Positions 1-1,450 of a stretch of DNA of 1,565 nucleotides are shown in pieces. The position numbers were made by a program, and so were the translations under genes. Source of the DNA: Escherichia coli (lineage in GTDB: Bacteria > Pseudomonadota > Gammaproteobacteria > Enterobacterales > Enterobacteriaceae); assembly GCF_024223415.1 (NCBI RefSeq), contig NZ_CP100510.1; one strand, written 5' to 3'. The notes below the pieces were generated by a model. That model did no database searches. It had not been told where the DNA came from and saw only the letters and a list, made by a program, of their open reading frames with translations. How positions within the stretch are numbered: the first letter of the stretch is position 1; each line of letters starts with the position of its first letter.

Positions 1-585
1 ATGTGCAAATGTAATACCGTCACCCGCGACGATATTCCGTTTGCCATCTGGTCAGGGCTTCGCCCCGACACCCCGCATCAGTGCGTACGTGCTCAATGTG
101 GTTTCCGGTTCTCTTCCGCTTCCTCGCCCACTCGCTCACTAACGTTCGGTCGCTGGGGCTGCGGCGAGCGGTGCCACCTCTCGCATGTTGTCGGTGATTC
201 CGCTGTTGTTCTTTCGGGGATAAGTCGTCAGATAGCCCTTCAAACGCGCTCAGAAGCTCTCAGACGCACGAAACGGGGTTTAAATGCCCGTCAGGGCATG
301 GAAGGCGCGAAAAACGCTTACAGAGCGTTTCAGGAGGTCAGGCGCGCCGATACCCCTAGCCAGGGGCTTTCAGGTCGCCAGGAACCGCGCCAGCCCCCTG
401 CAAAGCCCATTTGCACGGTACAGGCAGCCACTCGGTTGGTAGGTGGTCGTAGACCGTCGGTGTTACAGCGATGGGGGTCTGGGGTTCTCCCCAGACGGTT
501 TCCGGTTGCGCTCAAGGCGCTGCCGGAACCGTGGCGGCTCGATCGTTCTGGAGATCGGGGAGCAAAAACACGCAAGGGATTTTGA
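1..585 (+). CDS. Longest ORF (194 codons), of doubtful coding status; hypothetical protein only if real
   Basis: An ATG at position 1 opens a frame that runs to TGA at 583-585. Against coding: the product is Arg/Gly/Ser/Pro-rich and low in complexity. It uses many rare codons (aga, agg, ata, cta, cgg). It also runs straight across blocks that are non-coding in ColE1-family plasmids (111-172) and across the stem-loop cluster at 477-559. It is listed only because gene callers may report it. Confidence 0.15.
   Translation: MCKCNTVTRDDIPFAIWSGLRPDTPHQCVRAQCGFRFSSASSPTRSLTFGRWGCGERCHLSHVVGDSAVVLSGISRQIALQTRSEALRRTKRGLNARQGMEGAKNAYRAFQEVRRADTPSQGLSGRQEPRQPPAKPICTVQAATRLVGGRRPSVLQRWGSGVLPRRFPVALKALPEPWRLDRSGDRGAKTRKGF
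50..74. repeat. Perfect 25-bp inverted copy of the oriT-proximal hairpin element (partner at 1386-1410)
   Basis: ggtcagggcttcgccccgacacccc (50-74) is the exact reverse complement of ggggtgtcggggcgaagccctgacc (1386-1410). Identity stops on both sides. Confidence 0.9.
111..172. other. ColE1-type conserved block downstream of oriT (region of the primosome-assembly / single-strand initiation hairpins in ColE1-family plasmids)
   Basis: ctcttccgcttcctcgc (111-127) and ggctgcggcgagcggt (157-172) are identical to the pBR322/pUC strings ctcttccgcttcctcgc...ggctgcggcgagcggt. The interior is similar but diverged. A long-range stem pairs 116-119 plus 124-128 with 163-171, leaving a 4-nt bulge. Assignment as a pas/ssi site relies on homology of position in ColE1 and is not demonstrated here. 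Confidence 0.4.
477..559. other. Three adjacent stem-loops (RNAI/RNAII-like fold) in the part of the ColE1-like backbone where antisense copy-control RNAs would map
   Basis: SL-A pairs 477-484 with 489-496 (8 bp, loop ttct). SL-B pairs 497-511 with 517-530 (one bulge, one mismatch, one T-G, loop tcaag). SL-C pairs 538-544 with 553-559 (7 bp including one T-G, 8-nt loop). The two T-G pairs would be G-U only in plus-sense RNA. I could not identify a clear promoter or T-run terminator on either strand. Confidence 0.25.
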
Positions 586-622
586 GGCGGCAAAAGAGCA
601 ATGCAGGATAGACAACCCGATG

Positions 623-640
623 TCAAATGTTAACATTTGA
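623..640. repeat. 18-bp perfect palindrome tcaaatgttaacatttga
   Basis: Every position from 623 to 640 pairs with its mirror position, and the centre is GTTAAC. It lies in the intergenic gap between the ColE1-like region and the 3' end of rep. On the minus strand, TTGACA (complement of 621-626) overlaps its edge. Confidence 0.9.
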
Positions 641-651
641 ATCAGATTGTC

Positions 652-668
652 CAAAAACGGGGTTTTTG
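652..668 (-). terminator. Weak hairpin downstream of the rep stop codon (possible rep terminator)
   Basis: caaaaac-ggg-gtttttg (652-658 paired with 662-668) lies ~20 nt past the rep stop in the minus direction. The stem is almost all A-T and no separate T-run follows, so it is a poor canonical terminator. Confidence 0.25.
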
Positions 669-686
669 CCTGTGCCTGCCGCTGGC

Positions 687-1166
687 TCAATTTGAAAACA
701 TGGCCATGATTCGGCGCTGAATATCACCGTCTTTGTTGACCAGTGTTTTAGTGACAAACGCCGCGTAGTTTTTAGATGTGTTGTATCCCTTCCAGACTTC
801 ATGTGGATCGAGTGCATACGCACAAACCTTACCAGCAACAGGAATTCTGACTAACGCGTTTTTTGATTCTAAGTAGTTGAGCCAGCGCTTAATTGTGCTT
901 CGGCTAACACCCAATTTATCTGCTAAAAACTGCTGATCGGCAACAACAGCACCGCATGAGGGATCTATGTGCTCAGCTAAAAACGAGTAAAGCGGTATTG
1001 CTACAACTCCCTGCTTGTCCTTCGACAGTTCTCGGATCCTTTCCCAGCCCTTCTGATAAACCTGGGTGAATGGGCCGTTATTTTTCGGATCTGATTCCGA
1101 TTCTTTGTTTAATTTTTCCAGTTCTTTTAGACGCTTTTTTCGCTGCTCTTCAGTCCCGATATACAT
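687..1166 (-). CDS. repA: Small plasmid replication-initiator-like DNA-binding protein (159 aa, helix-turn-helix, RepA-type)
   Basis: Complete ORF with ATG at 1166-1164 and TGA at 689-687. GGAG (complement of 1174-1177) lies 7 nt upstream of the ATG. Residues ~80-101 (FLADKLGVSRSTIKRWLNYLES, nt ~864-929) fit a classic HTH pattern (G-V-S-x-x-T-I-x-R-W). The N-terminus is Lys/Glu-rich (EEQRKKRLKELEKLNKESE). It is the only ORF with ordinary amino-acid composition, and it sits directly downstream of iteron-like repeats in a tiny plasmid-like sequence. The Rep function and the repA symbol are inferred from context and from recollection of pKL1-type plasmids, not from a search. Confidence 0.8.
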   Translation of the reverse strand: MYIGTEEQRKKRLKELEKLNKESESDPKNNGPFTQVYQKGWERIRELSKDKQGVVAIPLYSFLAEHIDPSCGAVVADQQFLADKLGVSRSTIKRWLNYLESKNALVRIPVAGKVCAYALDPHEVWKGYNTSKNYAAFVTKTLVNKDGDIQRRIMAMFSN

Positions 1167-1173
1167 GGTAAAT

Positions 1174-1177
1174 CTCC
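1174..1177 (-). promoter_or_regulatory. Shine-Dalgarno (GGAG) of the rep CDS
   Basis: The minus strand reads ccgtGGAGatttaccATG, with 7-nt spacing to the start codon. Confidence 0.7.
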
Positions 1178-1185
1178 ACGGTCTA

Positions 1186-1237
1186 ATGATGGCTCAAATA
1201 TAAGCCATCATAGCTCAAACGTAAACCATGATAGGTC
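1186..1237. repeat. Three phased ATSATRGSTC boxes (1186, 1207, 1228; 21-bp period), with boxes 1 and 2 also forming a 9-bp inverted repeat; candidate Rep operator
   Basis: The boxes are atgatggctc (1186-1195), atcatagctc (1207-1216) and atgataggtc (1228-1237), starting exactly 21 bp apart. atgatggct (1186-1194) is the perfect reverse complement of agccatcat (1203-1211). The boxes bracket the predicted -35 and -10 of rep. Confidence 0.6.
1197..1225 (-). promoter_or_regulatory. Candidate sigma70 promoter for rep (-35 TTTACG, 17-nt spacer, -10 TATATT)
   Basis: The minus strand reads TTTACG (complement of 1220-1225), then 17 nt, then TATATT (complement of 1197-1202). The -10 lies about 30 nt upstream of the rep ATG. 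It sits in the 8-nt spacer of the 9-bp inverted repeat at 1186-1194/1203-1211. Confidence 0.5.
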
Positions 1238-1241
1238 GACC

Positions 1242-1292
1242 TAGCTCACACATGCGTGAGCTAACCTTAGACCACACATGCGTGAGCTAACC
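1242..1292. repeat. Iteron-like repeats: two perfect 20-bp direct repeats, the first extended into a 22-bp near-palindrome
   Basis: cacacatgcgtgagctaacc occurs at 1247-1266 and again at 1273-1292 (20/20 identical, 26-bp period). tagctcac (1242-1249) pairs perfectly with gtgagcta (1256-1263) around acatgc. The half-site TGAGCTA/TAGCTCA recurs at 1211-1217, 1242-1248, 1257-1263 and 1283-1289, with a related tagctaa at 1304-1310. Confidence 0.75.
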
Positions 1293-1293
1293 C

Positions 1294-1350
1294 ATAATGC
1301 AAGTAGCTAAAAAATCAATAACTTACAAAATCGCCCTTAAATATCTTTTC
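1294..1350. other. A+T-rich tract flanking the iterons, with an IHF-consensus core; candidate unwinding region of the vegetative origin
   Basis: G+C is about one quarter by hand count, versus roughly 60% in 61-180. AATCAATAACTTA at 1313-1325 matches WATCAANNNNTTR at every specified position and is preceded by an A6 run. No convincing DnaA box was found. Confidence 0.35.
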
Positions 1351-1355
1351 TGCTG

Positions 1356-1385
1356 AAAGTGTTGCGCAAAGCGGAACACTTTTTT
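1356..1385 (+). terminator. Rho-independent terminator-like hairpin, plus-strand orientation
   Basis: Stem 1359-1367 pairs with 1371-1379 (gtgttgcgc / gcggaacac, one G-G mismatch at 1364/1374), with an AAA loop. Six T residues follow immediately (1380-1385). On the minus strand only three T would follow, so the orientation is plus. Confidence 0.6.
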
Positions 1386-1450
1386 GGGGTGTCGGGGCGA
1401 AGCCCTGACCCAGTCACGTAGCGATAGCGGAGTGTATACTGGCTTACTCC
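1386..1450. other. ColE1/pMB1-type origin of transfer (bom/oriT) with conserved nic motif
   Basis: gggtgtcggggcgaagccctgacccagtcacgtagcgatagcggagtgtatactggcttac is nearly identical to the pBR322/p15A bom segment as I remember it (gggtgtcggggcgcagccatgacccagtcacgtagcgatagcggagtgtatactggctta). cagtcacgtagcgatagcggagtgtatactggctta is unchanged. By homology to the CTGG|CTTA nic I recall, the nick would fall between 1442 and 1443. An imperfect hairpin is present at gtcggggc-gaa-gccctgac (1391-1409). Confidence 0.7.

Follow-up and report, generated by a model that had tools for sequence, protein, structure and literature searches.

A ColE1-type oriT on a 1.5-kb single-gene Col(MG828) plasmid of Escherichia coli, probably mobilized by enzymes borrowed from other plasmids

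Positions 1387–1446 of the small plasmid described here probably constitute a functional ColE1-family oriT, acting in cis on a replicon that encodes no transfer proteins and that would rely on MbeA and MbeC supplied in trans together with a conjugative plasmid. The DNA analysed (hereafter the window) is a stretch of 1565 bases from Escherichia coli and is a complete circular plasmid, with 100% full-length identity to at least 12 circular plasmid records of 1565 bp; plasmid pABU of E. coli ABU 83972 is 99.8% identical to it, and PLSDB typing assigns the window to replicon type Col(MG828). Its sole real gene is rep (687–1166, minus strand), whose product of 159 aa carries a Pfam HTH_36 domain and has a weak RepL-like match. 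The same HTH/Rep reading frame is the sole annotated CDS in the identical 1565-bp records, where PLSDB names the product an HTH domain protein or, in one record, "RepA plasmid replication protein". Substitutions in rep among relatives number 24, 22, and 64 at codon positions 1, 2, and 3, respectively, and in all relatives checked the gene is antiparallel to oriT. The longest open reading frame (ORF; 1–585, 194 aa) was considered as a hidden gene and rejected, as its substitutions among relatives (27, 42, and 35 at the three codon positions) display no third-position excess, single-base indels in relatives shift its frame, and it has no family match. Nor does any other ORF apart from rep match a Pfam or NCBIfam family or persist as a reading frame in relatives, and comparison of the ORFs of the whole 1565-bp circle with these databases found no relaxase, coupling protein, mating-pair, or mob genes. 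The original prediction, made from the window alone, that relaxase and accessory mob genes are lacking and that Rep is the only credible protein, thus holds for an entire replicon.

ColE1-type replicons are recognized by an RNAI/RNAII-primed origin, often accompanied by rop, which the window does not have; an Rfam search returned neither RNAI nor any other RNA family in the window at E ≤ 0.01. Instead, the window possesses the HTH Rep gene, upstream repeats, and size of about 1.5 kb that identify Col(MG828) Rep-type miniplasmids, and it has more than 100 Rep relatives. The two 25-nt repeats upstream of rep (1242–1292, no strand assigned; repeat families D1 and I2) are part of the replicon rather than of oriT and are presumed to be Rep-binding (iteron or operator) sites. 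A blastn comparison of the window with ColE1 produces matches only at oriT, at an inverted copy of the oriT hairpin, and at a patch resembling a single-strand initiation (ssi) site, both of which are considered below. The plasmid is therefore a Rep-plus-repeats replicon unrelated to ColE1 and not a decayed ColE1, and the earlier supposition that nearly everything else ColE1-like in it had diverged has to be abandoned. As a separate observation, Rep proteins 69–100% identical to that of the window occur on contigs, often short and of odd coverage, in draft genomes of unrelated taxa (loci L006–L031), including Bradyrhizobium, Flagellimonas, Corynebacterium, Micromonospora, Clostridium, and Kitasatospora; these look like contamination of sequencing projects by E. 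coli miniplasmids.

The oriT core is of the ColE1 type (MOB-HEN/MOBP5), lies on the plus strand, and extends from the first base of a hairpin (1387) to 4 nt past the predicted nick (1446). It is identical by blastn at 59 of 60 positions (E = 5e-25) to positions 1521–1462 of ColE1 (NC_001371), an experimentally defined oriT, and the sole mismatch, A1400, falls in the hairpin loop, so that the anticipated near-unchanged segment of about 60 bp at nic, with CTGG|CTTA at 1439–1446, was indeed found. The 60-mer is matched at all 60 positions in ColE1-type plasmids that carry rop-mbeC-mbeA-mbeB-mbeD; in plasmid p720632_7 the neighbours of the identical oriT are rop, a MobC-family gene, MbeB, MbeD, and an ORF of 517 aa with a match to the Pfam Relaxase domain, which bears the RefSeq name MbeA. 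Across PLSDB the 60-mer is present in 4780 plasmid records, 4394 of which are typed as mobilizable and 343 as non-mobilizable. The nick itself is predicted between G1442 and C1443 of the plus strand, that is, between CTGG (1439–1442) and CTTA (1443–1446), at what we take to be the nick dinucleotide of ColE1. These tetranucleotides are preceded by GTATA, giving GTATACTGGCTTA at 1434–1446, which is identical to ColE1, and its first 11 nt, GTATACTGGCT (1434–1444; nick box GTATACTGG|CT), are invariant in all 25 distinct aligned oriT versions, drawn from both Rep-type and ColE1-type plasmids. The sequence CTGGCTTA has been reported to contain the cleavage site (nic) of the ColE1 relaxase (PMC5703827).

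On the 5′ side of the nick box is an imperfect inverted repeat (1388–1411, plus strand), folded as single-stranded DNA into a hairpin with a main stem of 1391–1398/1402–1409, a GAA loop (1399–1401), outer pairs at 1388–1389/1410–1411, and a bulged T1390. It is situated 31 nt before the nick and is collinear with ColE1 without gaps. The hairpin has been kept, with 94.4% of cells paired across the 25 distinct oriT versions. There is one compensatory pair, 1391/1409, which alternates between G-C and T-A (12 versus 11 sequences), and a third oriT allele keeps a hairpin in a shifted register; on these two grounds covariation, considered as strong evidence for the hairpin, was downgraded to supportive only. 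The foot of the hairpin, GGGTGTCGGGG (1387–1397, and also 63–73 on the minus strand), resembles the nick sequence reported for CloDF13, GGGTG/GTCGGG (PMC5935869), and because of this resemblance a second relaxase family might act on the segment containing it.

Near-identity to ColE1 on an unrelated backbone could be the result of a recent import, and selection on oriT consequently needs to be tested within the plasmid's own family. Searches based on Rep yielded 106 loci, which were divided into four tiers by Rep identity. Where Rep is identical, the whole plasmid is identical. At a Rep identity of about 78% the non-rep backbone is shared at 85–100%, and the divergent part is rep (77% at the nucleotide level) with its upstream control region (65%). 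In the third tier (Rep 69–75%), to which the complete Enterobacter plasmid pECC3473_09 (1443 bp) belongs, nothing outside rep can still be aligned except oriT (50–57 of 60 positions). The oriT of a Serratia relative (Rep 71%) has diverged: its hairpin is the same, but its spacer is longer and its box reads GTGTACTGGCTTA. An oriT is present in every complete member examined of the first three tiers, from identical Rep to 69–75%, and in the Serratia member; among relatives with Rep at or below 67%, which are mostly environmental, none was detected.

Diversity was determined over the 39 distinct sequences of the two closest tiers (Rep identical and Rep about 78%). Within these, π is 0.009 for oriT as against 0.046–0.16 for every other non-coding block, and of the 60-bp windows taken outside the rep module, only 0.8% reach so low a value. 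Positions varying in more than one sequence amount to 2 of 60 in oriT versus 266 of 1025 in the other non-rep DNA (Fisher p = 9e-6), and the two in oriT are its first base (1387) and a loop base (1400). Constraint on oriT had been proposed, with the proviso that the segment should evolve more slowly than its flanks; it does so, and is the least variable non-coding block of the plasmid. The limits of the conserved segment are equally sharp. In every lineage the similarity ends 2–4 nt beyond the nick, giving way to at least seven unrelated 3′ contexts, while the 5′ edge of similarity is the foot of the hairpin, directly after a terminator-like hairpin and T-run. The conserved interval is the hairpin-to-nick unit, which is exactly what a relaxase would need for recognition, cleavage, and termination, and the end of similarity 2–4 nt past the nick matches the extent predicted for a relaxase recognition and termination site. 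Low diversity is also seen at the 3′ end of rep (685–745): lineages that share only about 77% identity over the rest of rep have a π of about 0.001 here, which suggests either that recombination had a breakpoint within the gene or that the end of the gene overlaps a cis-acting site.

Several non-coding elements adjoin oriT. The terminator-like hairpin (AAAGTGTTGCGC/GCGGAACACTTT) with its T-run (1356–1386, plus strand; inverted repeat I3) abuts the 5′ edge of oriT; a fold of 1340–1420, which also covers the oriT hairpin, has z = -4.6, and a simple terminator scan missed the 1356–1386 hairpin. An inverted copy of the oriT hairpin region that has no nick box occupies 50–83 on the minus strand (repeat I1), roughly 170 nt beyond the nick in the 3′ direction around the circle. 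This copy of 34 nt is 88% complementary to 1377–1410, its ColE1-matching part being 50–73, and in 22 of the 39 relatives its 25-nt core is identical to the oriT hairpin, with the loop allele (GAA or GCA) shared between the two. It was found only in this lineage and in a partner plasmid of about 1.4 kb, and as a general feature of oriT-only plasmids it was rejected, being absent from the tier with Rep at 69–75% and from other oriT-only and mob-positive plasmids. One speculative and rather improbable proposal is that oriT forms a nick-bounded cassette which relaxases might move between unrelated replicons, with the copy at 50–83 pairing the ends of the incoming strand for recircularization, as an aid to a plasmid without its own relaxase, or allowing oriT to invert.

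A second ColE1-like patch lies at 111–172 (plus strand), with 51 of 62 positions (82%) identical to ColE1 1367–1308, a stretch situated between oriV and oriT in ColE1. It probably serves as an ssi or primosome assembly site, and ColE1-family plasmids are described as having an ssi near oriV (PMC5935869). The fold of 111–172 is not significant. Among relatives the patch exists as two alleles, identical at either 62 or 49 of the 62 positions, and the 1.4-kb partner plasmid has it in reverse orientation immediately 5′ of oriT. An element of about 96 bp (593–688), with the palindrome CAAATGTTAACATTTG inside it, lies just beyond the rep stop codon. IncX4 conjugative plasmids have a counterpart of about 95% identity in an intergenic position downstream of their replication genes, and the rolling-circle-type miniplasmid pBS512_2 shares parts of the element. 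The possibility that this element is a second oriT was rejected, since its location downstream of IncX4 replication genes and its presence in a rolling-circle-type miniplasmid indicate that it is not transfer-related.

The position of oriT between the rep control region and the ssi-like block, together with its stable hairpin, would also be compatible with a role in replication or maintenance, the segment acting, for example, as a priming hairpin or as a binding site for a protein and only resembling an oriT. This must be regarded as extremely improbable: distant members of the same Rep family do without the segment, the nick box, for which no replication function is known, belongs to the conserved part, and the same 60-mer is the oriT of thousands of ColE1-type plasmids. 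A 1197-bp record listed as complete (NZ_CP027139.1) corresponds to window positions 182–1378 and does not contain oriT, the inverted hairpin copy, or the ssi-like block. The record represents either a deletion derivative that arose naturally, in which case replication does not require this block, or a misassembly at a repeat that other plasmids share, and it counts against a replication role with that reservation. From the distant Rep relatives, and from this possibly artefactual record, the oriT module is dispensable for replication.

Exchange with other plasmids is the likely way in which the segment arrived on this replicon. The oriT alleles agree less well with the Rep tree than with the alleles of ColE1-type plasmids from the same genus of host. 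An Enterobacter-type allele is common to Rep-type plasmids (L016, L078) and Enterobacter ColE1-type miniplasmids (L115, L116), and the E. coli allele is common to the window and p720632_7 (L112). Physical joining of the two plasmid types has been recorded as well. The complete 2967-bp plasmid p22MO52E (L004) consists of the present plasmid and a 1341-bp element (its positions 1447–2787) inserted exactly at oriT, the insert being flanked by two directly repeated oriTs with swapped flanks, and the inserted partner also exists free as a 1395-bp Salmonella plasmid (CP066327.1). The partner plasmid, of about 1.4 kb and known from Salmonella and E. coli, has a ColE1-type oriT, no annotated gene, and no Rfam RNAI match. 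Several metagenome contigs of 3–11 kb have hybrid flanks at oriT like those of p22MO52E; in these hybrid contigs the shared tracts extend as far as 1065 nt to the 5′ side of the nick and end at nic+4, where the common 60-mer ends too. They were not accepted as proof of relaxase-mediated recombination, because the crossover is not locatable within the shared 60-mer and because homologous crossover or assembly chimeras explain them equally well. A further plasmid of 5160 bp (L120) was rejected as a second clean oriT cointegrate, because its junction is more complex and there is a single oriT core. Plasmid p22MO52E and the hybrid contigs fit fusion at oriT; small ColE1-like plasmids have been proposed to recombine there (Tran et al., 2012, as cited in PMC8683028). 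ColE1-type plasmids are the probable source of the oriT module and its probable partners in repeated exchange; the module was not inherited from a ColE1 ancestor.

Such traffic invites the interpretation that the 60-mer is a passive passenger, a recombination scar or recent import from ColE1-type plasmids kept uniform by exchange or gene conversion without any benefit from transfer. The non-ColE1 origin of the plasmid, the match of oriT alleles to same-genus ColE1-type plasmids in preference to the Rep tree, the many contigs and one complete record joining both plasmid types at oriT, and a co-occurrence with mbeA that is not oriT-specific (see below) can all be read in this way, and low oriT diversity could be maintained by repeated recombination with co-resident ColE1 plasmids instead of by selection on the plasmid's own transfer. 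A neutral scar, however, should decay or vanish, yet oriT is retained in every complete member of the three closest tiers and in Serratia, in a fixed orientation to rep; its boundaries are those of the functional hairpin-to-nick unit, with variation confined to the loop and the first base; and homogenization against functional oriTs would itself keep oriT functional. This interpretation is accordingly considered unlikely. It is considered less likely still, by a clear step, that oriT is mainly a fusion site, relaxase-dependent or used by homologous crossover, with the plasmid spreading by conduction within a cointegrate. For this, p22MO52E offers a clean oriT × oriT cointegrate of two independently occurring miniplasmids, and the 3–11 kb contigs with hybrid flanks and the proposal made for small ColE1-like plasmids (Tran et al., 2012, as cited in PMC8683028) point in the same direction. 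Cointegrates are nevertheless rare in relation to the many 1.5-kb monomers, the metagenome hybrids may be chimeras across the 60-bp repeat with a crossover not locatable inside the 60-mer, and the same relaxase would be needed, so that fusion adds to mobilization in trans as an explanation and does not replace it.

The favoured explanation, mobilization from oriT by proteins supplied in trans, raises the matter of where those proteins come from. Co-occurrence was assessed by inclusion-exclusion in 5426 complete E. coli genomes, in which the Rep family is present in 395, mbeA-like genes in 942, and either in 1172, leaving 165 with both. Genes resembling mbeA are thus found in 42% of Rep hosts (165/395) versus 15% of non-hosts, an apparent 2.7-fold enrichment, and 58% of host genomes have no mbeA-like gene. 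For an oriT-less control, the unrelated 2.1-kb plasmid type identified by the Col(BS512) rep, mbeA-like genes are present in 133 of 358 hosts (37%), which is not significantly different (p = 0.2). Co-occurrence as specific evidence of dependence on mbeA was rejected, and the enrichment is better ascribed to small plasmids travelling, or being assembled, together. In strain EC45, a host that was checked in full, the co-residents of the plasmid are IncF and IncX4 conjugative plasmids and the 6.2-kb pEc45_3, which has the same oriT without a relaxase, and no MbeA-type relaxase was found on any of the four plasmids of the strain. Several ColE1-replicon plasmids of 1.9–3.0 kb likewise have the same oriT and no relaxase, and a relaxase gene is reported in no more than about 40% of the ColE1 plasmids of enterobacteria (PMC8683028). 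Of the proposal that the plasmid depends entirely on a co-resident ColE1-family relaxase and a conjugative plasmid, the need for a relaxase and mating apparatus in trans stands, whereas dependence on an MbeA plasmid in particular finds no specific support in the co-occurrence figures or in EC45.

From the sequence and its kinship with ColE1 we infer the following route of transfer. In a donor containing a ColE1-type Mob module (MbeA, MbeC, and MbeB/D) and a conjugative plasmid that furnishes the coupling protein and type IV secretion system, a relaxosome would assemble on the hairpin-to-nick segment, and MbeA, with MbeC, would nick the plus strand at G1442|C1443 and remain on the 5′ end. The plus strand would then enter the recipient 5′-first, from 1443 to 1565 and onward from 1 to 1442, with the hairpin and nick box arriving last as the signal for termination and religation, after which the complementary strand would be made and Rep would re-establish the plasmid.

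The closest point of reference is the oriT (bom) of ColE1 with MbeA-MbeC, to which the window corresponds at 59 of 60 positions over hairpin, spacer, and CTGG|CTTA, in an equal distance from hairpin to nick, and in an ssi-like segment on the 3′ side of the nick. Unlike ColE1, the window plasmid has no mbe genes, rop, or RNAI/RNAII, belongs to an unrelated Rep-type replicon, and has about 135 extra bases, including the inverted hairpin copy, between the nick and the ssi-like patch. The functional arrangement, with oriT in cis and all proteins in trans, would be that of bom-positive, mob-negative pBR322-type vectors, which depend for mobilization on ColK mob in trans (PMC6817606), with a ColK or ColE1 helper and a conjugative plasmid in the donor; those vectors are laboratory deletion derivatives of ColE1-type plasmids, whereas the present plasmid is natural, has another replicon, and is about one-third of the size. 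Among natural plasmids of E. coli, an oriT-only class that includes ColE1-like oriTs has been described (pOriT; Ares-Arroyo, Coluzzi, and Rocha, 2023, PMC10123127). As a natural E. coli plasmid with a recognizable oriT and no relaxase or mating genes, the window fits the definition given in that study, and its description as a minimal oriT-only element, with rep as the sole gene, is apt. The ColE1-like pOriT examples are described there as ColE1-type mobilizable plasmids after relaxase loss; the oriT in the window is by comparison on a non-ColE1 replicon, which makes module capture or exchange more likely than gene loss. Another tiny natural cryptic plasmid with oriT sequence only and a second, inverted oriT-related copy is pBuzz, an E. 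coli rolling-circle plasmid with two inversely oriented oriTs that was mobilized by a B/O plasmid (Moran and Hall, 2019, as cited in PMC6807383). The plasmid pBuzz differs in oriT family and replicon and in having as its helper the relaxase of the conjugative plasmid itself, and the second copy in the window has no nick box. The small ColE1-like plasmids proposed to recombine at oriT (Tran et al., 2012, as cited in PMC8683028) are similar in their module boundaries and in cointegrate junctions at oriT, but are ColE1 replicons.

Nothing in the present analysis changes a concept, since mechanism, oriT family, and oriT-only lifestyle were established before. What is specific here is a predicted ColE1 oriT on a non-ColE1, single-gene replicon of 1.5 kb, with good comparative evidence of constraint; none of the papers searched describes the oriT of Col(MG828) plasmids. 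Mobility labels for these plasmids in PLSDB, assigned by MOB-suite, are inconsistent for what is practically one plasmid: among the records NZ_CP059129.1, NC_017629.1, and AP026462.1, pABU is labelled mobilizable and the others non-mobilizable. Identical copies of pABU also bear the non-mobilizable label, and most copies of the plasmid are labelled non-mobilizable. About 7% of complete E. coli genomes (395/5426) contain such plasmids, which are mostly labelled in this way despite a constrained ColE1-type oriT, so that their recognition corrects database mobility labels and affects estimates of how many plasmids can move. In published work, Ares-Arroyo et al. encountered mobilized oriT-only plasmids solely as artificial constructs (PMC10123127), and for that reason a natural 1.5-kb single-gene plasmid would be useful as a very simple system for trans-mobilization, for oriT exchange between replicons, and for oriT-mediated cointegration. 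In E. coli, this plasmid can probably spread by conjugation only through enzymes borrowed from other plasmids.
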